Below, one piece after another: positions 34,277 through 54,718 of a stretch of 64,000 nucleotides of DNA (its first letter is position 1; each line of letters begins with the position of its first letter). Source of the stretch: an uncultured Bacteroidales bacterium (GTDB lineage: Bacteria; Bacteroidota; Bacteroidia; Bacteroidales; Paludibacteraceae); contig CADBZO010000004.1 of NCBI GenBank assembly GCA_902799185.1, positions 485 through 64,484 on the forward strand, read 5' to 3'. Under the pieces are notes generated by a model. It searched no databases. It was given only the letters and a program-made list of their open reading frames with translations, and was not told the DNA's origin. A program made the position numbers and the translations under genes.

Positions 34277-34349
34277 GGGGTATTAGCTCAGTTGGTAGAG
34301 CGCAACGTTCGCAATGTTGAGGTCAGGGGTTCGACTCCCCTATGCTCCA
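34277..34349 (+). tRNA. tRNA-Ala: tRNA-Ala (anticodon CGC)
   Basis: Hand-folded cloverleaf. Acceptor ggggtat/atgctcc with G3:U70, D arm gctcagttggtagagc, anticodon loop ttCGCaa, T arm ggggttcgactcccc. Confidence 0.9.
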
Positions 34350-34352
34350 CGA

Positions 34353-35275: not shown

Positions 35276-35400
35276 CGGCATCCGATGCCGGTTGTTTCGT
35301 CTTTGTTTATCATGCCTATTTTTATCTCCCCCTGCTTTCCTGCCCAGCCTTGCTTATCCCTGCTTATTCCTGCCTAAAATGGCCTATTCATGCAAATAAA

Positions 35401-35432
35401 TTTGCATATGTCCGAAAAATATTGTACCTTTG
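35401..35432 (+). promoter_or_regulatory. Promoter TTTG-N20-TACCTTTG (copy 3)
   Basis: tttgcatatgtccgaaaaatattgtacctttgcac, about 40 nt before the ATG at 35473. Confidence 0.6.
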
Positions 35433-35472
35433 CACCCGAATAGATAACCAGAAAGAAAAGAAAACTACTACA

Positions 35473-36834
35473 ATGAATAACGAGAACCAAAACATTGAGT
35501 ACAAAGAGTCTTGGCGCGATGAGTATGTCAAGTGGCTATGCGGCTTTGCCAATGCACAAGGCGGCAAACTCTATATCGGCATAAACGACAAAGGCGAAGT
35601 GTGCGGTGTGGAGAATGCTCACAAGTTGTCTGAAGATATTCCTAACAAAGTAGTTTCTTTCTTGGGTATTGTGGCCGATGTGAACGTTCTCCATAAAGAC
35701 GGAAAGGATTATATAGAAATCGACGTGGCTCCGAGCGATGTGCCCATCAGCTACAAGGGAAAGTACTATTTCCGTTCCGGCAGCACATTGCAGGAACTGA
35801 ATGGTGCAGCTCTGCAGAACTTTGTTCTCAGGAAGATGGGACGCTCGTGGGACGAGGTGACGAATGACCGTGCAGCACTCAAAGACATTGACCGTGAGGC
35901 GGTTGATTATTTTATCCGCAAAGGAATAGAGGCCGAGCGTGTTCCCGAGGACCTCCGCAAAGCCTCAACGGAAGAAGTGTTAACGAGCTTGGGCTTGATT
36001 GACGACAACGGCGGACTGACCAATGCGGCTGTTCTGCTTTTCGGCAAGAACCCTCAGCGCTATTATCCGAGTGCTGTCTTCAAGATAGGTCGTTTTGGCA
36101 TCGACGAAGCGGATCTGAGGTTTCAAGATGTAATTGAGGGCAATATCCTGCAAATGGCTGAGCGCGTGATGGATGTGCTCAAAGCCAAATATCTGATTTC
36201 TCCGGTTCGTTTCGAAGGAATGCAGCGATACGAAAAACTGGAACTACCCAAAGAGGCTTTACGAGAGATTCTTTATAATGCCCTTGCGCATAAGGATTAT
36301 ACAGGGCCGGACATCCAGATGCATGTCTATGACAGCAGTATTGAGATTTGGAACGAAGGAGAATTGCCGGAGGGTTATACTCAAGAGACTCTTTTTGCCA
36401 GCCACTCATCCAAACCGCGCAATCATAAGATTGCTAATGTCTTCTTCAAATCCGGTTTTATCGACACATGGGGACGAGGCTTCCAGAAGATCCGTGATGG
36501 TTTTGCGGCAGACGGGATCCCGATGCCCAAGGTCGAGAATTTCTGCGGCGGTGTACGAGTGACTATTGAACGAACCGTATTCGTAAAACTGTCGGTCAGT
36601 GGTCAGACAGGTGGTCAGACAGGTGGTCTGACAAGTGGTCAGACTGGTGGTCAGACGAGAGAACGTGTATATGAATTAATAAAGACTAATCCCTATATAA
36701 CACGAGATGAATTAAGTAAGGTTCTCGGAATATCTCCTTCTGCAATACAAAAGCACATTGACAAACTAAAAGAAGTTCGTATTAGAAGAATAGGAGGTGA
36801 TTTTGGTGGTCATTGGGAAATAATTGAAAAATAG
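35473..36834 (+). CDS. AlbA_2 (Schlafen-like) + HATPase_c_4-like + C-terminal wHTH protein
   Basis: NIEYKESW...GFANAQGGKLYIGINDKGEVCGV is the classic AlbA_2 N-terminus. The C-terminus RERVYELIKTNPYITRDELSKVLGISPSAIQKHI is HTH-like. Confidence 0.7.
   Translation: MNNENQNIEYKESWRDEYVKWLCGFANAQGGKLYIGINDKGEVCGVENAHKLSEDIPNKVVSFLGIVADVNVLHKDGKDYIEIDVAPSDVPISYKGKYYFRSGSTLQELNGAALQNFVLRKMGRSWDEVTNDRAALKDIDREAVDYFIRKGIEAERVPEDLRKASTEEVLTSLGLIDDNGGLTNAAVLLFGKNPQRYYPSAVFKIGRFGIDEADLRFQDVIEGNILQMAERVMDVLKAKYLISPVRFEGMQRYEKLELPKEALREILYNALAHKDYTGPDIQMHVYDSSIEIWNEGELPEGYTQETLFASHSSKPRNHKIANVFFKSGFIDTWGRGFQKIRDGFAADGIPMPKVENFCGGVRVTIERTVFVKLSVSGQTGGQTGGLTSGQTGGQTRERVYELIKTNPYITRDELSKVLGISPSAIQKHIDKLKEVRIRRIGGDFGGHWEIIEK
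36598..36657 (+). repeat. Coding 12-nt tandem repeat (GGTCAGACAGGT x5) encoding an SGQTGGQTGGLTSGQTGGQT linker
   Basis: Direct reading. Confidence 0.9.
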
Positions 36835-36903: not shown

Positions 36904-36950
36904 GACCGAGACACAAAACCGCCGAAAAAAGAAAAAATTGGCAAAAAGAA

Positions 36951-37790
36951 ATGGGGAGAACATTGTATAAATATTTGGATGTAACGGGAGCGAAATGTAT
37001 GGTAGCATATTCTAACCTGCAATTTACAAACGCATCCCAATTGAACGATCCTTTCGATTGCTCCCCATCCCTTATGGACTATTCCGATATTCCGGATTCC
37101 ATGACGCATGGATGGATACCCAAAGAGTGGTTAATGGAGAAAGAAGAAAGTGATGCTCTAAATTTACGAGACGCCACTTGGCTGTGCAGCCTGTCGAAAG
37201 TCAACGATTCTATGCTGATGTGGAGTCATTATTGCGCCAACCATCGCGGGATTTGTATAGGTCTGAACATGGATGAAGTTAAGAAGAATTATCCTCCGAT
37301 GTTTGGCACAATATATCTGGAACCGTTGGAATTTGAGGTAAAATACCAAGATATTGCGGAACGTCGGCCGTGTAACCAAGCATCATGGTACTTTCAATGG
37401 GAAACGAAAGACAAAAAATGGGAGTATGAGCAAGAGGTGAGATTAGTAGTCAAAGATCCTTCTGGCATGTATGCCGAACTAACGATGGAGCAAGCAGACC
37501 GAAAAGGAGAGATAGATTGGAGAGAGGTGCGCCACTACATGCCATTGAAAGGCGAATGTTTTGAATCTATCTATTTCGGCATACATGTAGATACGGAACT
37601 GAAGGAAAAAATCACCAATTATGCTCTTGTCAAACTAAATCCGAATATTAAAATCTACCAAATGAGTATAGATGAAAATGCTCTTCGTCTAAAACCAATT
37701 CTTGAGGAGATACAGATAGACAAGAACGCTCATCTCCCAATGCTCAAACCGGCAAAGAAAAAGTTTGTTTATAAAACATTTAGAATGTAA
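36951..37790 (+). CDS. DUF2971-family protein
   Basis: The N-terminus LYKYLDVTGAKCMVAYSNLQFTNASQLNDPFDC matches the DUF2971 hallmark (Y.Y......l....l.f.....fNDPfE). Confidence 0.65.
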   Translation: MGRTLYKYLDVTGAKCMVAYSNLQFTNASQLNDPFDCSPSLMDYSDIPDSMTHGWIPKEWLMEKEESDALNLRDATWLCSLSKVNDSMLMWSHYCANHRGICIGLNMDEVKKNYPPMFGTIYLEPLEFEVKYQDIAERRPCNQASWYFQWETKDKKWEYEQEVRLVVKDPSGMYAELTMEQADRKGEIDWREVRHYMPLKGECFESIYFGIHVDTELKEKITNYALVKLNPNIKIYQMSIDENALRLKPILEEIQIDKNAHLPMLKPAKKKFVYKTFRM

Positions 37791-39378: not shown

Positions 39379-40404
39379 ATGATTTATTCACCCATAAAAA
39401 CATTGAAGAATATGAAAGAGAAACTAATTTTTGAAATCAGTAATGCAATGACGGATGTCTTGAGTGTTGAACAGATGGCGCAATTGAATGGTGTTCTTTT
39501 GCAGATCATTAGTCGCTATAATATAAGCGATGATTCCGCCTTTGTACAAGAAAACACAACATCCAACGACCGATTACTTGACATTTTCCTGTCAGCCAAA
39601 CAAGTGGAAGGATGCACAACTCCTACTATCCGTTACTATGGAGCAACTATCCGTCATTTCTTCCGTAAGATGCCAAAGAAAGTCACCAACTATACAACGG
39701 AAGACATCCGTGCCTATTTGGCGGTTTTCCAGCGGAAGCATAAATCAAGCAAAGTAACTATAGATAATATTCGCCGTATATTCTCTTCCTTTTTTGCTTG
39801 GTTGGAAGAAGAGGATTATATTATCAAAAGTCCGGTGCGACGCATCCATAAAGTAAAGACAGGAGCGCAAGTAAAAGAGGTGCTGACAGACGAGAATCTG
39901 GAAAACTTGAGAGACTCATGCGTCCAATTACGTGATATAGCCATGATAGACCTGCTTGCATCCACAGGAATGCGTGTTGGAGAGTTGGTAAAACTGAACA
40001 GGGAAGATATAAATTTTGCAGAGCGTGAATGTATAGTGTTTGGGAAGGGAAATAAAGAAAGAATTGTATATTTCAACGCCCGAGCCAAAATACATTTGCA
40101 ACAATATCTTACAACACGGCGTGATCGTAACAAAGCCTTATTTGTCTCGTTGGCACGTCCTCATTACCGTTTACAAATATCCGGTGTGGAAACTCGCTTA
40201 CGTAAAATCGGACAAGAGGCAAAAATAATGAGAGTGCATCCGCATAAATTTCGGCGTACATTGGCGACGATGGCAATAGACAAGGGAATGCCAGTTGAGC
40301 AGGTTCAGCGCTTATTAGGGCATGTCAAAATAGATACAACCATGCACTACGCTATGGTAAACCAGAATAATGTGAAACAATCACACCGCAAATATCTCAG
40401 TTAA
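39379..40404 (+). CDS. Tyrosine site-specific recombinase (XerC/D-like) embedded in the R-M locus
   Basis: STGMRVGELVKL (catalytic R box), HPHKFRRTLAT, and LLGHVKIDTTMHY (the H-x-x-x-x-x-Y end). An alternative ATG lies at 39412. Confidence 0.85.
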   Translation: MIYSPIKTLKNMKEKLIFEISNAMTDVLSVEQMAQLNGVLLQIISRYNISDDSAFVQENTTSNDRLLDIFLSAKQVEGCTTPTIRYYGATIRHFFRKMPKKVTNYTTEDIRAYLAVFQRKHKSSKVTIDNIRRIFSSFFAWLEEEDYIIKSPVRRIHKVKTGAQVKEVLTDENLENLRDSCVQLRDIAMIDLLASTGMRVGELVKLNREDINFAERECIVFGKGNKERIVYFNARAKIHLQQYLTTRRDRNKALFVSLARPHYRLQISGVETRLRKIGQEAKIMRVHPHKFRRTLATMAIDKGMPVEQVQRLLGHVKIDTTMHYAMVNQNNVKQSHRKYLS

Positions 40405-40407
40405 ATA

Positions 40408-41049
40408 ATGCGAACGCACCTTACATATCGCTTATGTTATCGACCTCGTAGAAAAAATACGCGGATAAATGATAATTTAGAACAACAAGCAATAGATCTT
40501 TTCGATTACATGTTTCCTTCTATAACAACTGGAAACTATAAAATTGGTGATTGGCTGAAACCAAAACGAGGAATAGGACTGTTAACAAAAGATACTATAT
40601 TGGGTGATGTGCCCGTTGTAGCAGGAGGATTGCGGCCTGCTGCATATCATAATAAGGCCAATACATTAAGTCCGGTCGTTACCATTTCTGCATCTGGAGC
40701 AAATGCAGGATATGTTGCATTATGGAATAAACCAGTTTGGTCTTCGGACTCATCCTATATAGATCCTTCACTAACACCTGATGTGTATTTTTGGTATGTG
40801 ATGTTAAAAAAACGACAAAAAGAAATATTTGATGCTCAAACAGGATCTGCACAACCTCATATATACCCGCAACACATTGCAGAACTGCCTATAAAGCAAT
40901 TGGAAAATGAGCAGATAATTAAATATACAGAACAAGTAACGCCATTATTTAAAATGATAGGCGATACAACAGAAGAAAATGTCAAATTAGCCCAACTTCG
41001 TGACACCTTATTACCCAAATTGATGTCAGGAGAACTCAAAATATCGTAA
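40408..41049 (+). pseudogene. hsdS: Half hsdS cassette (central conserved region + one TRD + C-terminal conserved region)
   Basis: Begins inside the central repeat (RINDNLEQQA) and ends LAQLRDTLLPKLMSGELKIS. It lacks the first target-recognition domain. Confidence 0.7.
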
Positions 41050-41086
41050 AACAGACTTATAAATTCTCATTTATGGAAGAGTGGAA
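40984..41086 (+). repeat. 103-bp direct repeat (hsdS 3' conserved region + spacer + MEEWK start), copy 1
   Basis: Identical to 42102-42204 except for one base. Confidence 0.9.
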
Positions 41087-42167
41087 GAAAGTAAAATTAG
41101 GCGAAATTACCAACATGAAGAATGGAAGGAAACGCCCACAAAGCAATGGTGTATTCCCTGTATATGGTGGCAATGGTATCATGGACTATACTGATTCTTA
41201 TAATGCAGAAAATGTAATCATAGTTGGACGTGTAGGTGCGTATTGTGGATGTGTCTATAAGTGTGAGAGTAAATGCTGGGTGTCGGATAATGCAATTTCG
41301 ATATCTGCAAAAGAAGTTGTTGATCCACTGTTCCTTTATTATCTCATGTCGACACTTGATTTACATCATCATCACATTGGCGGAGCACAACCTTTGATGA
41401 CACAAGATATTGTCGGTGATTTTGTAGTGTCAATACCTCCATTGTCAGTCCAGGATCAGATAGTGCAGATCCTTTCTTCTTTAGACGACAAAATCGAACT
41501 CAACCGACGGATAAATGATAATTTAGAACAACAAGCACAGGCATTATTTAAGTCATGGTTCGTAGATTTTGAGCCGTGGGGTGGCAAAATGCCAAACGAT
41601 TGGAAAGAGGGAACATTACTAGATATAGCAGATTATCTAAATGGACTTGCAATGCAGAAATATCCTTCAAAAGAAGGCTTTGTGTCTTTGCCAGTTCTTA
41701 AAATAAAGGAATTGAGACAAGGTTATTGTGACGACGCTAGTGACAGATGCACTTCTACTATATCTTCACAATACATCGTAAATGATGGGGACGTTATTTT
41801 TTCTTGGTCAGGAACATTGTTGGTTGATATTTGGTGCGGTGGGGTATGTGGATTAAATCAGCATTTGTATAAAGTAACCTCAAAAAGTTATCCGAAATGG
41901 TTTTATTTATATTGGACCATATCTCATTTAGAGAAATTTCGGCGGATAGCATCAGATAAAGCTGTTACGATGGGGCATATAAAACGAGGCGATTTGGAGA
42001 AAGCCAAAGTATTAATACCTCCTATTACCACCATAGTTACTCTTTCTAATCAAATTACTCCAATGATAGAAAATATTATTAATGTCAGGAAAGAAAATAC
42101 AAAATTAGCCCAACTTCGTGACACCTTATTACCCAAATTGATGTCAGGAGAACTTAAAATATCGTAA
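41073..42167 (+). CDS. hsdS: Type I R-M specificity subunit, complete (two TRDs)
   Basis: Layout is TRD1, central LDDKIELNRRINDNLEQQA, TRD2, then LAQLRDTLLPKLMSGELKIS. Confidence 0.85.
   Translation: MEEWKKVKLGEITNMKNGRKRPQSNGVFPVYGGNGIMDYTDSYNAENVIIVGRVGAYCGCVYKCESKCWVSDNAISISAKEVVDPLFLYYLMSTLDLHHHHIGGAQPLMTQDIVGDFVVSIPPLSVQDQIVQILSSLDDKIELNRRINDNLEQQAQALFKSWFVDFEPWGGKMPNDWKEGTLLDIADYLNGLAMQKYPSKEGFVSLPVLKIKELRQGYCDDASDRCTSTISSQYIVNDGDVIFSWSGTLLVDIWCGGVCGLNQHLYKVTSKSYPKWFYLYWTISHLEKFRRIASDKAVTMGHIKRGDLEKAKVLIPPITTIVTLSNQITPMIENIINVRKENTKLAQLRDTLLPKLMSGELKIS
41473..41537 (+). repeat. hsdS central conserved repeat
   Basis: A 52-bp stretch matches 42677-42729 with one mismatch. A 30-bp stretch is identical to 40462-40491. 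Confidence 0.9.
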
Positions 42168-42204
42168 AACAGACTTATAAATTCTCATTTATGGAAGAGT
42201 GGAA
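42102..42204 (+). repeat. 103-bp direct repeat, copy 2
   Basis: See 40984-41086. Confidence 0.9.
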
Positions 42205-42742
42205 AGAATACAGATTAGAAGAATTATGCAAAGGGAGAGGAACCTATGGTATAGGGGCTTCAGCAGTTCCTTATGATAAAAGTAAATATACTTATCTACG
42301 CATTACTGATATCAATGATGATGGAACTATAAATAAGAAAGGACTCTTATCTGTAGATTCACCCGAAGCATGTAATTATGTTCTTAGCAAAAACGATATT
42401 GTGTTTGCAAGAACAGGAAATAGCACAGGACGCTCTTATTTTTATGATGGAACAGATGGAGTATTAGTATATGCAGGGTTCTTAATCAAGTTTTCTTTGG
42501 ACGAAAAGAAAGTTAATCCGCGTATTTTGAAATATTACACGCATTCAAATAAATATTATGATTGGGTCAATTCTTTTAATACGGGTAGTACAAGAGGAAA
42601 CATAAATGCACAAACTTATGGAAATATGCCCATATTGCTACCTTCTAGAGCTATTCAAGATAAGATTGTATCTGTTCTTTCTTCTTTAGACAACAAAATC
42701 GAACTCAACCGACGGATAAATGATAATTTGATAGCTGCATAA
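42191..42742 (+). pseudogene. hsdS: Truncated hsdS cassette (one TRD + central conserved region)
   Basis: Starts MEEWKEY, ends LDNKIELNRRINDNLIAA-stop. There is no second TRD. Confidence 0.7.
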
Positions 42743-42743
42743 T

Positions 42744-43937
42744 ATGGAAGAGAATAATCATATGCAAGACGAAGAATACAAGGTTCAAACAGTTACTGAC
42801 TATTTGAACCAGATCACAGGTATTCGTAATAAGTTGATTGCAGAAGGTCGTTCGGATAACTTGTTTTTCCGAGGGCAAAGCAATTCAACGTGGGAAATAC
42901 GACCAAGTGTTTTCCGAGATTCTCTATTAAGTGTAGAAGATCTTATTATTCAACGAGCCATTGCACGTGCTCCCTATGAATTTGCAAATAGCAGCGCTAT
43001 AGAAGAATTAACAAAATTACAACATTATGGTTTACCTACGCGCTTGTTGGATGTTACAATGAATCCGTTAGTCGCGCTGTATTTTGCATGTGCGACTGAA
43101 AATAATAATAGCGCAACAGATGAGGAAATTCCCGATGGAGTCGTTTTCTATTGTACTGGATATGGAGAGTATAGTAATGCTGAGGATATAAAAATTCTTG
43201 CTTCGTTAGCTAAAATTAAAATTGATGGAAATATTACATTACAACAGCTTGCAGAAAATTTAGGAATTAAGGATCAAAAGAATGCTTTAAATTTTATTTC
43301 TCAATTACAAAGGCATGTGTTTGTAATGCCACATTACAGCAACAGCCGTATAATTAGTCAGAGTGGCGCATTTTTATTAACAGGAGCTATCAATGTTACA
43401 GAAAACGAGACGGATTTGTGGCAAAGTAAGGTGCAAAAAAGCGTTTGTAATTTGAACTCCATTTTTGCAGAACCCATACTGATTGACGGAAAAGAAAAGC
43501 AGAATATATTAAATGAGTTGGATTTCTTAAATATAAATGAAGGCTCTTTATTCCCAGAATTAGAACATCAAATGTCACACATCAAGCACACCGGTATTAA
43601 AGGTATTCAAGAATCAATTCCAGAATTCATTAAATTTGAAGTGTTAAAGCAAATGAACGTTGTCGAAGATACTGAAAAAGAAGACTTATATTTTACACCA
43701 TCAAAACAAGAAATACATAAAATTATTGAAAGATATATCAAAAACAAAGAACTTGAGGAACAGGTATACCAAATTATTGAAAGGAATACAATTTACCCTG
43801 ATTGGAATATAAAAGCTGCCGTATTGAGTTCAATGCAACTTTCTATAAGGAAACTCCTACAGAAGCAAGAAATAGGAATGGCAAAGGAAATAGCTCATAG
43901 TATTGTTAGAAAAGTAGCCGAAATGGATTATATATGA
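42744..43937 (+). CDS. FRG-domain protein
   Basis: LFFRGQSNSTWEIRPSVFR...LQHYGLPTRLLDVT matches the FRG-domain hallmark. The stop overlaps the hsdR start (ATGA). Confidence 0.7.
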   Translation: MEENNHMQDEEYKVQTVTDYLNQITGIRNKLIAEGRSDNLFFRGQSNSTWEIRPSVFRDSLLSVEDLIIQRAIARAPYEFANSSAIEELTKLQHYGLPTRLLDVTMNPLVALYFACATENNNSATDEEIPDGVVFYCTGYGEYSNAEDIKILASLAKIKIDGNITLQQLAENLGIKDQKNALNFISQLQRHVFVMPHYSNSRIISQSGAFLLTGAINVTENETDLWQSKVQKSVCNLNSIFAEPILIDGKEKQNILNELDFLNINEGSLFPELEHQMSHIKHTGIKGIQESIPEFIKFEVLKQMNVVEDTEKEDLYFTPSKQEIHKIIERYIKNKELEEQVYQIIERNTIYPDWNIKAAVLSSMQLSIRKLLQKQEIGMAKEIAHSIVRKVAEMDYI

Positions 43938-46900
43938 TGACATATAACGAAAATAACTACGAATATGCTGTGATAGCTTTATTTCAAGGAATGGGCTATC
44001 AACATCTCTATGGACCGGACATAGAGAGAGATTATTATGTTCCTTACTATGCAAAACAGTTGCAGCAAAGTTTGGAAACCATTAATCCCGATAAACCTTC
44101 TGCTGCAATACAGGAAGCAATTAGTAAGTTAAAGGATATTGATTCTCGTAATTTGGTTTTAGCCAATGAAACTTTTATGGATTATCTGCAACACGGAATA
44201 GAAGTTAGTTGGTTTGATGGTAAAGAACAAAAAAATGATCTGGTCTATTTAGTCGAATATGATCCGGAATTGATAAATAGAAACTCTTTTCTTGTTGTCA
44301 ATCAGTGGACCTTTGTAGAGAATGAAACGGAGAAACGCGCGGATATAGTGGTATTCATCAACGGACTACCTTTGGTCGTTATCGAACTAAAATCTCCATC
44401 AAGAGAAGAGACGGACGCTTCGGAGGCATATTTACAACTGCGGAATTATATAACCCAGATTCCATCATTATTCGTGTATAACGCGTTCTGCGTAATGAGC
44501 GACATGGCAATCTCCAAAGCCGGAACAATCACCAGTTCGGAAGACCGATACATGGAATGGAAAACGAAAACAGGAGAGTACGAAAGCAAAGCCCATGCCG
44601 ATTTTGATACTTTTTTTGAAGGAATGTTCCGCCGTGATTGGTTGCTTGACATCCTAAAGAATTTTATTTGTTTCTCTAAAGACGAAGCAGGCTCTGCCAA
44701 GATATTAGCGGGATACCATCAGTTCTTCGCCGTGCGTAAAGCCGTAGAGCGAACAAAATATGCCACACAGACAGAGAAGAAAGAGCATAAAGGGAAGATT
44801 GGCGTTTTCTGGCATACACAAGGTTCCGGCAAATCGTTATCTATGGTGTTCTATGCCCATCTACTACAGGCAGAGTTATCTCAACCAACCATTATTGTCA
44901 TTACCGACCGAAACGATTTGGATGATCAGTTGTATACGCAATTCTCCAAGTGTCAACATTTTCTTCGTCAAAAACCGGAGCAAGCCAGCAGCCGTGAACA
45001 TCTGAAACGGTTGCTTGCCGGGCGTGAAGCAAATGGCATCATCTTTACAACGATGCAGAAATTTGAAGAGTCTTCAGAAGCCTTGTCGATGAGACGCAAT
45101 ATAGTGGTCATGACAGACGAGGCTCATCGCGGGCAATATGGTTTTGAAGAGAAAGTGGATGCTAAAACCGGCAAGATATCTGTAGGTATTGCGAGAGTCA
45201 TCCATAATTCATTACCTAATGCTTCGTATATAGGCTTTACTGGTACTCCTATCTCCTTGAAGGATCGCGATACACAAGAGGTTTTCGGTGATTATATTGA
45301 TGTTTATGATATGACCCAGGCCGTTCTTGATAATGCGACCTGCCCGGTATTCTATGAATCAAGAGTTATCAACCTAAGATTGGACGAGAAAACCCTGAAA
45401 GCGATAGATGATGCATATGATCAATTAGAAGAAGAGGGCGCAACAACGGAACAGATAGAAAAGAGCAAAAAGGAAATGTCGCATCTGGAGGAACTATTGG
45501 GGGCTCCGGAAACGATAGACTCATTATGCCAGGATATAATACAACATTATGAAGAAAATCGTCAGTATGAGCTGACGGGAAAGGCAATGATTGTTGCCTA
45601 TTCGCGTCCAATAGCAATGAAGATTTATCACCGTATGTTGGAATTACGCCCCAATTGGACAGAAAAAGTTAAAGTGGTTATGACTTCGGGTAATCAGGAT
45701 CCCGAAGATTGGCATAAAATTATTGGCAACAGCCAATATAAGAAAGAACTCGCAAAACGCTTCAAAGACAATAGCGACCCGATGAAAATAGCCATTGTTG
45801 TTAATATGTGGTTGACGGGTTTTGATGTTCCTTCGTTGGCTACAATGTATGTATACAAACCGATGAAAGGGCATAATCTGATGCAGGCCATAGCACGAGT
45901 AAATCGTGTGTTCCAAGACAAATCAGGCGGTTTGGTGGTGGATTATATCGGTATTGCAAAGGCTCTCAAAGAAGCCATGCACGATTATACCAAACGCGAC
46001 AAAGACAATTATGGCGATACGGATATCAAAAAGACGGCATTGGTTAAATTTAGAGAGAAACTGGAGATATGCCGTGATATATTTCATGGGTTTGACTATA
46101 GTGATTTCCAAACAGGCACAGATGCAGATCGGGCTCTTATTATAAAGGGGGGTGTCAATTTTATGATGTGTCCCGAAAAGGGAGATGTGCTTCGAGTTTA
46201 CTTAAAAGAATCCTCTTTGTTGCATAGCGCGGTAACATTGTGCCGTAGCCTATTAGAGGAAGATGAACGATATGAAGCAGCCTTCTTTGAAACAGTGCGA
46301 ACATTGTTAAACCGTTTGAAAGGTAAAGGAAAAGTCTCCAAAAAGGAGATTAATGCCCACATAGGAGAACTCTTAAAACAAAGTGTTCATAGCGACGGAG
46401 TAGTAAATCTATTCTCTGATATAAAAGCGGAGTTCTCATTATTTGACGCTGCGTTCTTGGAAGAAATATCCAAGATGAAAGAAAAGAATATTGCCATTGA
46501 GTTGTTAAAACGGTTGTTGGCAGAAAGAGTACATCTGTATCAGAAAACCAATGTAATTCAGGCAGAGAAATTCTCGGATATGCTCAATGCATCACTCTCC
46601 AACTATTTGAAAGGGCTTTTGACGAACGAAGAAGTCATTCAAGAATTATTAAAACTGGCGAAGGAGATAGCAACATCCGAGGCACAGGGAAACGAATTGG
46701 GTTTGACGATGGAAGAAAAGGCATTTTATGATGCCCTGACACGTCCACAGGCCGTAAAAGATGTATATACCAATGAGCAACTGGTAGAAATGACGCATGA
46801 ATTGACTGACCAATTGCGTAAGAATAGAACCATAGATTGGCAAAAGAAAGAAACAGCACGCGCAGGTATGCGTAGAATGATAAAACGTCTTTTAAAGAAA

Positions 46901-47500
46901 TATAAATATCCGCCTGAGGAAGCTGACAATGCAATGGATATTGTTCTTCGGCAATGTGAACAATGGACTGATAATATTAGTCTATCAACCTCATCACAAC
47001 ATATTACACCTGATCAAAATCAAGAAAATCCCCAAATAAGACCTCTTTATCCTGACTATCGGGAAGGCAGCCTTCCGCTTTATTCCATCCGTGCAGCGTG
47101 TGGTTATTTTGGAGAAGGCGAGGAAGTGGAAGTGCAAGGATGGATTTCCGCAGAAGGTATCGGGCGGCTTAACGAAGATATGTTCGTTGTGCAAGCCGCA
47201 GGCAATTCCATGGAACCGCGTATCCATGATGGCGACTACTGCGTCTTTGAGCGATATAAAGGCGGCTCACGAAACGGGAAGATTGTCCTTGCGCAACACC
47301 GTGGATACTATGACGATGACAATGCCGGAGCCTTCTCCATCAAGGAGTATAATAGTACCAAATCTGCAGATGAGTACGGCAATTGGCAGCATGAGTCTAT
47401 AGAACTCCGTCCGCTAAATCCTGCCTATAATCCCATCGTTCTCACGCCGGATGATATAGAAGATTTCCGCATCATCGGAGAGTTTGTAGCAACACTTTGA
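43934..47500 (+). CDS. hsdR: Type I restriction enzyme R subunit with a C-terminal S24/LexA-like peptidase domain (1188 aa)
   Basis: N-terminal nuclease region (ADIVVFINGLPLVVIELK). Helicase motifs HTQGSGKS, DEAH and TGTP. A DUF3387-like tail. Then GNSMEPRIHDGDYCVF (47201-) ... AFSIKEY ... LRPLNPAYNPIVL ... IIGEFVATL. Confidence 0.85.
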   Translation: MMTYNENNYEYAVIALFQGMGYQHLYGPDIERDYYVPYYAKQLQQSLETINPDKPSAAIQEAISKLKDIDSRNLVLANETFMDYLQHGIEVSWFDGKEQKNDLVYLVEYDPELINRNSFLVVNQWTFVENETEKRADIVVFINGLPLVVIELKSPSREETDASEAYLQLRNYITQIPSLFVYNAFCVMSDMAISKAGTITSSEDRYMEWKTKTGEYESKAHADFDTFFEGMFRRDWLLDILKNFICFSKDEAGSAKILAGYHQFFAVRKAVERTKYATQTEKKEHKGKIGVFWHTQGSGKSLSMVFYAHLLQAELSQPTIIVITDRNDLDDQLYTQFSKCQHFLRQKPEQASSREHLKRLLAGREANGIIFTTMQKFEESSEALSMRRNIVVMTDEAHRGQYGFEEKVDAKTGKISVGIARVIHNSLPNASYIGFTGTPISLKDRDTQEVFGDYIDVYDMTQAVLDNATCPVFYESRVINLRLDEKTLKAIDDAYDQLEEEGATTEQIEKSKKEMSHLEELLGAPETIDSLCQDIIQHYEENRQYELTGKAMIVAYSRPIAMKIYHRMLELRPNWTEKVKVVMTSGNQDPEDWHKIIGNSQYKKELAKRFKDNSDPMKIAIVVNMWLTGFDVPSLATMYVYKPMKGHNLMQAIARVNRVFQDKSGGLVVDYIGIAKALKEAMHDYTKRDKDNYGDTDIKKTALVKFREKLEICRDIFHGFDYSDFQTGTDADRALIIKGGVNFMMCPEKGDVLRVYLKESSLLHSAVTLCRSLLEEDERYEAAFFETVRTLLNRLKGKGKVSKKEINAHIGELLKQSVHSDGVVNLFSDIKAEFSLFDAAFLEEISKMKEKNIAIELLKRLLAERVHLYQKTNVIQAEKFSDMLNASLSNYLKGLLTNEEVIQELLKLAKEIATSEAQGNELGLTMEEKAFYDALTRPQAVKDVYTNEQLVEMTHELTDQLRKNRTIDWQKKETARAGMRRMIKRLLKKYKYPPEEADNAMDIVLRQCEQWTDNISLSTSSQHITPDQNQENPQIRPLYPDYREGSLPLYSIRAACGYFGEGEEVEVQGWISAEGIGRLNEDMFVVQAAGNSMEPRIHDGDYCVFERYKGGSRNGKIVLAQHRGYYDDDNAGAFSIKEYNSTKSADEYGNWQHESIELRPLNPAYNPIVLTPDDIEDFRIIGEFVATL

Positions 47501-47675
47501 CTTTTTATCTCCTAAAATAGTAGACCCCTTTTAACCATGCCCTGTCCGCGTAATTCTGCAAAAAAAAGTTGCTTTCAGGTGATAGATTTTAGGTCTTTTT
47601 TGACTTATATATGGAGGGGTATATAAATACGAATCTATTAACACAAAACACAACGGATAAAATATTATTAGATAT

Positions 47676-48710
47676 ATGTCCAAACAACTACAAATACGCA
47701 ACTCCACGGCTGAGTTCTTGATCTTCCAAGCCGAAGACAAGGCGCAAGGCGTGCAGGTGTTCTACCAAGATGAGACCATCTGGGCTTCGCAAAAAGCCAT
47801 CGCCGCTTTGTTTGATTGCTCAACAGACAACGTAAGTCTGCACTTGAAAAACATCTTTGAGAGCGGAGAATTACAAACGGAGGCAACAACCGAGAAATTC
47901 TCGGTAGTTCAAAAAGAGGGTAATAGAGAAGTTACTCGCTCAGTTCTCTTCTACAATCTTGATGCTATTATTGCTGTCGGCTATCGCGTTAATTCCCGGC
48001 GAGCTACGCAGTTCAGGCAGTGGTGTACGGCTGTGTTAAGGCAGTTTGCCATCCGTGGATATGTCATAGACAAGAAACGCATGGAGAACGGAGCTTTCAT
48101 CAGCGAGGATTACTTCGAGCACCTGTTAGCAGAAATTCGTGAGATTAGGCTCTCCGAACGACGCTTCTATCAGAAACTGACAGATATATATGCAACGGCT
48201 ATCGACTATAACCGTGATGCACCCACCACGCGGGAGTTTTTCGCCAAAGTGCAGAACAAAATGCACTACGCCGTACACGGACAGACGGCTGCGGAACTGA
48301 TTGTATCGCGCGCCAATGCTCAGAAAGAGCACATGGGACTTACCACTTGGGAGAATGCTCCGCATGGGAAGATTGTCAAACCCGATGTGAGCATTGCCAA
48401 GAACTATCTCAACGAAGCCGAATTGGAAGACATGGGACAATTGGTCAACTCTGTTTTGGACGCCGCCGAACGTATGGCCAAACGGCATATCCCGATGACC
48501 ATGGAGGATTGGGCGAAACGTATCGACATCATTCTGGAAGCCACTGACGACAGAATACTGACCGATGCCGGCTCAGTCTCGCATGAGTTTGCACAAGCTT
48601 TTGCAGAGACAGAATTTGAGAAATACCGCGTCATCCAGGACCGTCTGTTTGAGTCAGATTTTGACAAGTTCACTCTGCCGACATTGCCTTTTGAAGATCA
48701 AGAAGATTAA
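47676..48710 (+). CDS. rhuM: RhuM-family protein
   Basis: LFYNLDAIIAVGYRVNSRRATQFRQWCTAVLRQFAIRGYVIDKKRME is characteristic of RhuM. Confidence 0.8.
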   Translation: MSKQLQIRNSTAEFLIFQAEDKAQGVQVFYQDETIWASQKAIAALFDCSTDNVSLHLKNIFESGELQTEATTEKFSVVQKEGNREVTRSVLFYNLDAIIAVGYRVNSRRATQFRQWCTAVLRQFAIRGYVIDKKRMENGAFISEDYFEHLLAEIREIRLSERRFYQKLTDIYATAIDYNRDAPTTREFFAKVQNKMHYAVHGQTAAELIVSRANAQKEHMGLTTWENAPHGKIVKPDVSIAKNYLNEAELEDMGQLVNSVLDAAERMAKRHIPMTMEDWAKRIDIILEATDDRILTDAGSVSHEFAQAFAETEFEKYRVIQDRLFESDFDKFTLPTLPFEDQED

Positions 48711-48803: not shown

Positions 48804-49099
48804 TTACTCTTGCATCAGCAGTTGCATAACCACTTTCGCAGAGTATGCAACCGGGGTGCCGGGGCCGAAGATGGCGGCAACGCCGGCTTTGTAGAGGAAG
48901 TCATAGTCCTGCGCGGGGATGACACCACCGGCGGTGACCATGATATCCGGACGGCCGAGTTTCTTGAGCTCCTCGATGACCTGCGGGATGAGGGTCTTGT
49001 GACCTGCCGCGAGGCTGGAGACACCCAGTACATGGACGTCGTTCTCCACTGCCTGTTTAGCTGCCTCTGCCGGAGTCTGGAACAACGGTCCCATATCGA
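48804..49099 (-). pseudogene. mutB: Displaced 3' fragment of methylmalonyl-CoA mutase large subunit (B12-binding domain C-terminus)
   Basis: Encodes the same 96 residues (...[14 protein letters not shown]...VVMQLLMQE) as 58821-59116. My hand alignment gives about 18 synonymous differences. Homology stops abruptly at 49099. Confidence 0.85.
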
Positions 49100-49106
49100 T
49101 CGTCAA

Positions 49107-53826: not shown

Positions 53827-54718
53827 TTATTGCCAAAGGGTTTCTTTGTCCCAATCTGTAGGGAAACCCATAGCACTTATATCAGCATCGGGAAACTCTG
53901 CAAAGAGGGCTTTCAGTCGAGCAGGGAACGTTGTGTTAGGATTGACCTTCAGCAACAGATATTGGATGATGCACAATACATAGTACAATCGATCACTGCG
54001 TACCGGAGTTGATATGAACATGCCATTAACCTTACGCGGGAATAATGGACGGATACGGAGCGTTTTATTCCAAAGACGGCTATGGTGCGCGCATATATTT
54101 CGCACGTACACAATACTATGCAACCATGACTCAAACACACTATCGCTCACTCCATAGTAATTTGCAATCCTCCGTTTCGTGAGACTCGGTTTGAGCAACT
54201 TATAAAGCATTGAAAGCGTGCCAAAAGAAGTGACTTCCATCGTCATCCATGCCGGTGGAAATGCATCATCATACTTGCGTTTGAAAAGCAAGATTTGGTC
54301 ATCGTCCGTTCTGTCTAACTCTGATTGCAGACTGACTGGCAATGAGTCCCGCGTGCTTGGTCGTACTGACAAAATTGGCAGCATCAGCAAACCAATAGAT
54401 ATCCACTTCATCCGAAAGCGTATAAGCCATTTGCGTACGGATGGAGACCTCAATCTTTTCCAACTCTCCGGCAATCAACTTGCGGAGGCGACTATCAAAC
54501 TTATACAACGTATAAGCTTGCTCAAAGGTTGCATCGTTCTTGAAAGTATGCAGCACTTTGTCGCTCATCAACGGCATTAGGTAACTCTTCAATCGGAAAT
54601 AACTAATCTGTTGCAATGTATGCAACGCTTTGGACTCATCCGCGAACGAAAGTCCATTGCCTTTGAGCAACGCTATCTGCTGCTGAAAGGATAGTGGTTT
54701 GTCGGTATAATTAGCCAT
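53827..54718 (-). pseudogene. Abi_2 (AbiD/AbiF-like) abortive-infection gene, frameshifted
   Basis: The N-terminal 139-aa ORF (54299-54718) and the C-terminal ORF (53827-54474) overlap in different frames. Together they give the Abi_2 layout (ISYFRLKSY...RNICAHHSRLWN). Confidence 0.7.

Follow-up and report, generated by a model that had tools for sequence, protein, structure and literature searches.

HsdR, the restriction subunit of a type I restriction-modification (R-M) system, is encoded in a 64,000-nucleotide stretch of DNA (the window; contig CADBZO010000004.1) from an uncultured Paludibacteraceae bacterium and was found in this study to carry an S24 domain of the LexA/UmuD type at its C terminus. 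That the tail is such a domain, with an aligned Ser/Lys dyad and fused in frame, is fully supported by sequence profiles and structure modeling, and conservation strongly implies that it would cut its own chain, in cis, at a Cys-Gly bond by means of the dyad. We suggest that the tail might be a cis-autoproteolytic one-shot switch which, triggered by the RecA-single-stranded DNA filament (RecA*), turns restriction down after DNA damage, and we assign this interpretation a probability of roughly 45%. The original prediction, which was made from the letters of the window alone, had proposed an S24/LexA-UmuD-like domain on HsdR; this is borne out by Pfam, AlphaFold2 (AF2), Foldseek, and the alignment to UmuD. 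It had treated the fusion as a single case, however, and here it was mistaken: the module is mobile and widespread, and restriction enzymes of many types carry it.

A complete HsdR with an S24 tail

The open reading frame (ORF) at 43934..47500 on the plus strand encodes 1188 amino acids (aa), ends with the stop codon at 47498-47500, and is the longest gene of the type I R-M operon (Table 1). The protein matches NCBIfam TIGR00348 with 570 bits (cutoff 284.55) and the PADLOC model REase_I with 964 bits. Four Pfam domains follow one another along its body, namely HSDR_N (aa 4-202), SWI2_SNF2 (262-504), T1R_D3-like (581-671), and T1RH-like_C (699-1013), and the translation contains the nuclease motif ADIVVF...VIELK, the Walker A motif GSGKS, and DEAH. 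Both hsdM and hsdS are co-encoded, as is expected of a type I HsdR, and, judged from its domain content, the body of aa 1-1016 is complete. The nearest relatives of this HsdR come from Bacteroides spp. (77-79% identity, 1022-1072 aa) and lack the S24 domain; homology to them stops at aa 1016. The linker that follows is probably disordered. It has no homology to S24-less HsdR or to the S24-bearing HsdR of another family at locus L008 (see below), exists in at least two versions inside HsdR's own 90% cluster, and has a predicted local distance difference test (pLDDT) value of about 49 over the initial ten residues of the AF2 model.

The tail matches Peptidase_S24 (PF00717, gathering cutoff 23.3) over aa 1053-1185 with 45.3 bits (E 8e-12) in the context of the whole protein and with 51.7 bits (E 9e-14) when searched alone. 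Ser1092, Lys1137, and the scissile site were aligned to UmuD through a profile of 43 tail homologues, and the scissile site also through a pairwise alignment. The codons that the original prediction had assigned to the Ser nucleophile and the Lys are correct, falling on UmuD Ser60 and Lys97, the latter on the strand that corresponds to LexA VTVKRL and UmuD TVKKL, and the conserved Np-y-p segment to which it had pointed is present as PLNPAYNPI, aligned with UmuD PMNSAYSPI. A further element, absent from that prediction, strengthens the S24 assignment: the Cys-Gly scissile site, where LPLYSIRAAC/GYFG lies on UmuD FPLFSDLVQC/GF (the slash marks the bond) in both the pairwise and the profile alignment. 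The Ser of the GxSM motif is invariant in 43 close homologues (alignment A1) and in 76 more distant ones (alignment A4), Lys1137 is equally invariant in A4, with conservation of at least 90% in A1, and for the scissile motif A-A-(C/A)-G conservation reaches 90% or more in both alignments. All three are kept across fusion partners that have nothing else in common.

The AF2 model of aa 1033-1188 has an overall pLDDT of 83.7 and a predicted template modeling score (pTM) of 0.79, and it places a strand (model residues 14-23), a loop, and a second strand (35-40), together the region of the cleavage site, ahead of the beta core. The best matches of the model in the PDB, as found with Foldseek, are LexA 1jhe_A (E 2e-7, probability 1.0), the LexA-RecA complex 8trg, lambda cI, and UmuD', and all 35 matches with E <=0.001 are LexA, LexA-RecA complexes, lambda cI, or UmuD'. 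The profile search and the structure prediction, both of which had been named as checks in the original prediction, therefore came out in its favor, and the agreement of profile, structure prediction, and fold search rules out a chance motif match. LexA or UmuD proper can also be ruled out, as the protein scores only 21.2 bits with TIGR00498 and 21-25.5 bits with NF007621 against cutoffs of 110 and has no helix-turn-helix (HTH) domain. None of the PADLOC models matched the S24 tail.

Compared with the C-terminal domains of LexA, UmuD, and lambda cI (MEROPS S24, PF00717), the HsdR tail is alike in fold, in the Ser-Lys dyad, in the Cys/Ala-Gly scissile loop that shortly precedes the core, and in the motifs RNG(Q/K)xVxA and P-x-N-x-x-(Y/F)-x-P-I. 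It differs from LexA and UmuD in that its N-terminal partner is a restriction nuclease-motor of 1016 aa instead of an HTH domain or a Pol V subunit, and it is at most 25% identical to any solved structure.

Reality of the fusion and mobility of the module

Four independent assemblies encode exactly the same protein of 1188 aa, and the 90% cluster to which it belongs has 42 members, 1180-1191 aa long, drawn from ENA, Logan, JGI, and NCBI. An artefact of assembly or sequencing, including the error merging two genes that the original prediction had named as what would overturn it, is thereby ruled out. LPLYSIRAACG, GNSMEP, and FSIKEYNS(T/I)K are unchanged in all 15 cluster members that were inspected, while variation is seen in the linker and in the final few residues.

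Six other metagenome-assembled genomes (MAGs) of Paludibacteraceae carry an orthologous HsdR (66% identity) with another version of the tail (58% identity), and these genes lie in hsdM-hsdS-hsdR operons; the hsdM of the window is 75-77% identical to the hsdM found beside Paludibacteraceae HsdR-S24 genes. In a seventh MAG (L008) the HsdR is of a different family, with 23% protein identity and no T1RH-like_C domain. The 429-bp module at 47072-47500 is nevertheless 93% identical in DNA to positions 10094-10522 of L008, and the match has sharp boundaries, starting exactly at the LPLYS codons and stopping at the stop codon. Between the two cassettes the rates of nonsynonymous (dN) and synonymous (dS) substitution are 0.026 and 0.273 (dN/dS 0.095), values by which the module is under strong purifying selection. 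On the other side of the R-M genes, the DUF2971 gene (36949-37790) is 94% identical in DNA to positions 1641-2482 of L008, and the intervening R-M genes are unrelated. It thus appears that entire R-M cores have been swapped, bounded on the left by a conserved flank and on the right by the S24 cassette. There are at least three distinct HsdR-S24 lineages, together with dozens of other in-frame fusions. Because of the close DNA match beside an unrelated HsdR body, the existence of different tail versions, and the low dN/dS, we regard the module as an autonomous, selected, and mobile unit. The recombinase encoded in the window had no BLASTP match at the other HsdR-S24 loci (L004-L009), so that fusion and specificity switching are not bound to each other, and a link to hsdS phase variation was rejected.

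Distribution of the module among restriction proteins

An index-free search with the tail over 1.84 billion representative proteins yielded 1568 relatives, 857 of them with E <=1e-10 and 117 with E <=1e-30. A word-indexed search returned only proteins shorter than 325 aa and missed HsdR's own 1190-aa cluster, which makes it unusable for counting long fusions. In nearly every case the module occupies the extreme C terminus; its host proteins measure 150-1878 aa, and they are spread over several phyla. Partner domains were identified by Pfam scans of the 76 longest proteins among the 150 best representatives. The most frequent were SLFN-g3/DUF2075 helicases (Nhi-like, some with GIY-YIG; 14 of the 76), HsdS (Methylase_S; also 14), and ResIII (11), and others were T1RH-like_C, EcoEI_R_C, Type_ISP_C, RE_AlwI, Eco57I, MmeI, McrBC, DUF3427, GIY-YIG, and HNH. 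By these domain assignments almost all partners are restriction components. The original prediction had called for a search for homologous fusions, and many were found, on HsdR, HsdS, Res, IIG/ISP, AlwI, McrBC, and Nhi-like proteins; phmmer added more C-terminal fragments of HsdR that bear the tail.

Some of these fusions can be placed in context. In P0004 the tail is attached to a type II restriction endonuclease-like protein whose gene lies 3 bp downstream of a ResIII-Eco57I gene of 1333 aa, in an island that also holds DUF2971 and RhuM genes. Nhi-like-S24 proteins of about 785 aa occur in about 25 Bacteroidales genomes, cultured type strains included; cultured carriers are, for example, Bacteroides oleiciplenus YIT 12058 and Phocaeicola barnesiae DSM 18169. 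The Nhi and Nhi-like nuclease-helicases (DUF2075, PF09848) are, with HsdS, the most frequent identifiable carriers of the tail; the enzyme differs from HsdR, and the described Nhi consists of nuclease and DUF2075 only, with no S24 tail reported (bioRxiv 10.1101/2022.05.11.491447). A few members of the clade (P0070, P0075, and P0082) have the HTH_3-S24 architecture of repressors. The HTH-bearing members that were examined lie in housekeeping neighborhoods and not beside R-M genes, so that a role for them as regulators of neighboring R-M systems is unsupported.

No close relative of the tail was present in 2.9 million viral contigs, where the best matches had 34-38% identity, and a phage origin was rejected on this ground. 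Among the plasmids of PLSDB there is one distant case, from Halomonas sp. PA16-9 (L134; NZ_CP040452.1, 4968-7438), in a region without annotation in PLSDB. Here the helicase and the S24 domain are encoded by separate ORFs (SLFN-g3, 686 aa; S24, 159 aa) that lie in different frames and overlap, which is either a natural split form of the fusion or a frameshift.

Proposed function of the S24 tail

Conservation of the motifs and the nearly exclusive association with restriction proteins make it likely that the module is a regulatory autoprotease. In the mechanism that we suggest, an S24 module with its own substrate loop would be tethered by a flexible linker to a complete HsdR. When it meets a co-protease signal, most likely the RecA filament formed during DNA damage or double-strand-break repair, the Cys1056-Gly1057 bond would be cut, the module would separate from HsdR, and restriction would be lowered, amounting to an intrinsic form of restriction alleviation. 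Such a shut-off would keep the chromosome safe at times when unmodified sites arise through repair synthesis or a switch of hsdS. It could come about in two ways: through loss of S24-mediated dimerization, by the logic of LexA and cI inactivation, or through a new C terminus (...RAAC; ...AAA in relatives) that would mark the HsdR body for ClpXP-type degradation, the fate of the N-terminal fragment of LexA. Autocleavage, RecA* as the trigger, and shut-off as the consequence are what we infer, and of these the consequence of cleavage is the least certain step of the model.

RecA*-stimulated self-cleaving S24 proteins are defined by a scissile Ala/Cys-Gly and a Ser-Lys dyad, and LexA-like S24 SOS regulators have been identified in Bacteroidetes (PMC8565304). 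RecA* is therefore the most plausible trigger, being the rule for the S24 family and fitting these regulators. The non-canonical LexA of Bacteroidetes (HTH_3 plus S24; PMC8565304) belongs to the same phylum and would share its RecA*-responsive chemistry with the HsdR tail, although these proteins, unlike HsdR-S24, are transcription factors.

Three considerations favor shut-off as the outcome. DNA damage is the condition under which type I restriction is alleviated, in E. coli through proteolysis of HsdR; a nuclease that meets RecA-coated repair intermediates on its own chromosome would gain from local self-inactivation; and the operon rearranges its specificity genes, which would create unmodified self sites. 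The ClpXP-dependent alleviation of EcoKI and EcoAI (types IA and IB) is likewise a damage-linked proteolysis of HsdR (PMC12707154, PMC4231737), and by analogy the outcome proposed here would be the same. The difference is that in E. coli a separate housekeeping protease recognizes the translocating HsdR, whereas in the present case HsdR has a protease of its own, which would sense the signal directly. LexA cleavage is known to expose ClpX signals (PMC10584840), and the predicted new C terminus of HsdR, -RAAC, resembles the ClpX signals -LAA and -VAA but does not match them.

Several points weigh against a damage-linked shut-off. Cleavage at aa 1056 leaves a structurally complete HsdR, the S24-less relatives with 79% identity being complete at 1043-1052 aa, so that cleavage by itself need not inactivate the enzyme; either the uncleaved form is restrained or the cleaved form loses dimerization or stability. 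The degron route looks weak, as the new end would be -AAC and not of the -LAA/-VAA type, while the tmRNA tag of the host ends in ALAA. Fusions to HsdS are harder to explain as off-switches of a nuclease. The scissile loop itself was modeled with low confidence (pLDDT <50 at model residues 25-28). Relative to UmuD the tail also has a hairpin insertion of 11 residues, and it has additional clade-specific conserved residues (Trp1070, Asp1127, Tyr1139, and Ser1141); both could point to a different partner. Moreover, S24 regulators that are independent of RecA exist, such as IrvR (PMC7101444).

The completeness of the cleaved product lends itself to an opposite interpretation, in which uncleaved HsdR-S24 would be a restrained proenzyme, held by a steric block or as a nonproductive dimer, and autocleavage would free the active nuclease. 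The trigger would be RecA* on phage replication or recombination intermediates, or another infection cue, in a manner comparable to the conversion of UmuD to UmuD' that activates Pol V. The product would then be equivalent to the functional S24-less relatives. The common partners of the module include the Nhi-like nuclease-helicases, for which a partner methyltransferase was not seen, although none was searched for, and a licensing step would curb the autoimmunity of such enzymes. In CapH/CapP, DNA-damage-triggered proteolysis modulates an anti-phage system, as is proposed here, and it does so by inducing defense; CapP, however, is a separate metallopeptidase that cuts a transcriptional repressor, whereas the tail of HsdR would be an S24 serine autopeptidase fused to the effector. 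Activation through cleavage also has a precedent within the family in UmuD (PMC8565304). We nevertheless consider activation unlikely, albeit worth keeping in mind, since damage is known to lower and not to raise restriction in methylation-protected R-M systems (PMC12707154), waiting for RecA* would delay the restriction of incoming DNA, and the HsdS fusions do not fit the model of a caged nuclease.

A nonproteolytic role is less probable still. The C-terminal domains of LexA, cI, and UmuD dimerize, and type I, type III, ISP, McrBC, AlwI, and MmeI/Eco57I enzymes cut through collision or transient dimerization. As these are the very partners that were found, the tail might dimerize or tether two restriction complexes, or it might dock on RecA filaments or DNA ends, cleavage being incidental; the hairpin insertion and the conserved clade-specific surface residues would suit such a binding role. 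What makes it improbable is that Ser, Lys, and above all the A-A-(C/A)-G loop, which a pure binding domain would not need, are kept across diverse fusions, and the low dN/dS also speaks against it. It is very improbable that the S24 domain acts in trans on another protein, for instance a phage anti-restriction protein, HsdM or HsdS, or the product of an island neighbor: the dyad is intact and intermolecular cleavage within dimers is possible for UmuD, but the module has its own conserved substrate loop directly upstream in every architecture, and no conserved partner gene accompanied it across the contexts examined. Lastly, a functionless tail, left by a recombination accident in a defense-island hot spot or by an assembly or frameshift error, could be imagined from the tailless nearest relatives and from the position of the module at a recombination boundary, but it is effectively refuted by the independent assemblies, the size of the cluster, the purifying selection on the tail, and the diversity of HsdR-S24 lineages and other fusions.

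To our knowledge, the way in which R-M systems spare their own host after DNA damage, on entry into a new host, or when their specificity has changed is mechanistically understood for only a few type I systems of E. coli. In these, ClpXP proteolysis and control of assembly provide the protection. A damage-sensing protease fused directly to a restriction subunit would solve the problem in a new and simple way. Extending the argument beyond HsdR, we tentatively propose, as a possibility with the odds still somewhat against it, that a mobile clade of LexA-like self-cleaving cassettes serves as a general regulatory tail of type I, II, IIG/ISP, III, IV, and Nhi-like enzymes that would be triggered by the RecA filament and need no external protease. 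If this holds true, it represents an unrecognized and widespread solution to the problem of autoimmunity and restriction alleviation. It could also account for an entire class of tails in defense islands that are so far unannotated "S24 family peptidases" and could supply a portable, damage-responsive protein switch, and the prediction is directly testable with standard LexA-type assays. Both parts of the fusion are well known, and it is their combination and its generality that appear to be undescribed. Full-text literature searches gave no account of an S24 module attached to a restriction protein, be it HsdR or another, and a targeted reading of a review on R-M biology from 2025 turned up neither S24 nor LexA, in agreement with the original prediction, which knew of no characterized HsdR-S24 fusion.

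The R-M operon and its defense island

The operon runs in the order hsdM, tyrosine recombinase, three hsdS cassettes, FRG gene, and hsdR, and the hsdS cassettes adjoin the recombinase gene. The full-length hsdS ORF matches Methylase_S with 111 bits. The hsdS cassettes share direct repeats (D1, D3, and D7), with the pair 40973-41105/42091-42223, at 91%, and the pairs 41451-41524/42656-42729 and 40462-40491/41508-41537. Two assemblies (L084 and L085) have identical hsdR, yet the 364-aa hsdS is present in only one of them, from which we conclude that the specificity locus rearranges in nature. The stop codon of the FRG gene overlaps the start of hsdR. A terminator-like site was sought after the hsdR ORF and was not found there.

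Table 1. Coordinates of hsdR, its predicted S24 elements, and surrounding features of the window
Feature	Position	Strand	Basis or remark
HsdR body, aa 1-1016: PD-(D/E)xK nuclease, superfamily 2 (SF2) motor, C-terminal helical domain	43934..46981	+	TIGR00348, Pfam
Variable linker, ~30 aa, aa 1017-1046	46982..47071	+	
S24 self-cleaving module (predicted activity), 142 aa, aa 1047-1188	47072..47497	+	PF00717, AF2, Foldseek
Predicted scissile bond Cys1056-Gly1057	47099..47104	+	aligns with UmuD Cys24-Gly25
Ser1092, predicted nucleophile, GNSMEP	47207..47209	+	aligns with UmuD Ser60
Lys1137, predicted general base, FSIKEY	47342..47344	+	aligns with UmuD Lys97
hsdM, methyltransferase subunit, 515 aa	37805..39352	+	HsdM_N and N6_Mtase, precomputed for identical locus L084/L085
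Tyrosine recombinase inside operon (hsdS rearrangement)	39379..40404	+	Phage_integrase 121 bits, Phage_int_SAM_4
Three hsdS cassettes: 213 aa (partial), 364 aa (full length), 183 aa (partial)	40408..42742	+	
FRG-domain accessory gene, PADLOC candidate PDC-S15	42744..43937	+	PDLC04927 389 bits, PF08867
RhuM-family gene downstream of hsdR, island context	47676..48710	+	PDC-S05 509 bits, PF13310
DUF2971 gene, candidate defense accessory	36951-37790		PDC-S31
SLFN_AlbA_2/HATPase_c_4/HTH gene, candidate defense accessory	35350-36834		
tRNA-Ala(CGC) gene	34277-34350		left edge of island
tmRNA gene, tag GNTSYALAA	33671-34059		left edge of island

The operon is part of a low-GC (guanine plus cytosine) island. 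It begins directly past the genes for tmRNA and tRNA-Ala, a site that is a classical hot spot of integration; from about 34 kb onward GC content is 33-49%, down from 51-57%. Candidate defense genes crowd in and around the operon (SLFN_AlbA_2/HATPase_c_4/HTH, DUF2971, FRG, and RhuM), and relatives of the operon (L001-L003) have different inserts in equivalent positions, namely Fic, DUF1016, Abi_C, and GmrSD. We regard the RhuM gene as island context, for which a part in the proposed mechanism is possible at most. Upstream of it lies an element (47562-47678) of which two copies with 85-88% identity are found downstream of hsdR-S24 in L008 (11058-11152 and 11815-11932), and which may serve island cassettes in common, as a promoter or as a junction element.

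Two further observations concern the remainder of the island. On the minus strand at 48804-49106, in a GC-rich patch at 48-49 kb, there is an orphan fragment of a B12-binding domain (99 aa; PF02310, 41 bits) that looks like the remnant of a truncated mutase-type gene. At 53827-54718, also on the minus strand, Abi_2 is present as two overlapping ORFs, of which the one of 215 aa corresponds to the C-terminal half of the profile and the one of 139 aa to the N-terminal half. A frameshift has probably made it a pseudogene; at the same position in assembly L084, a single Abi_2 gene of 248 aa has been called.

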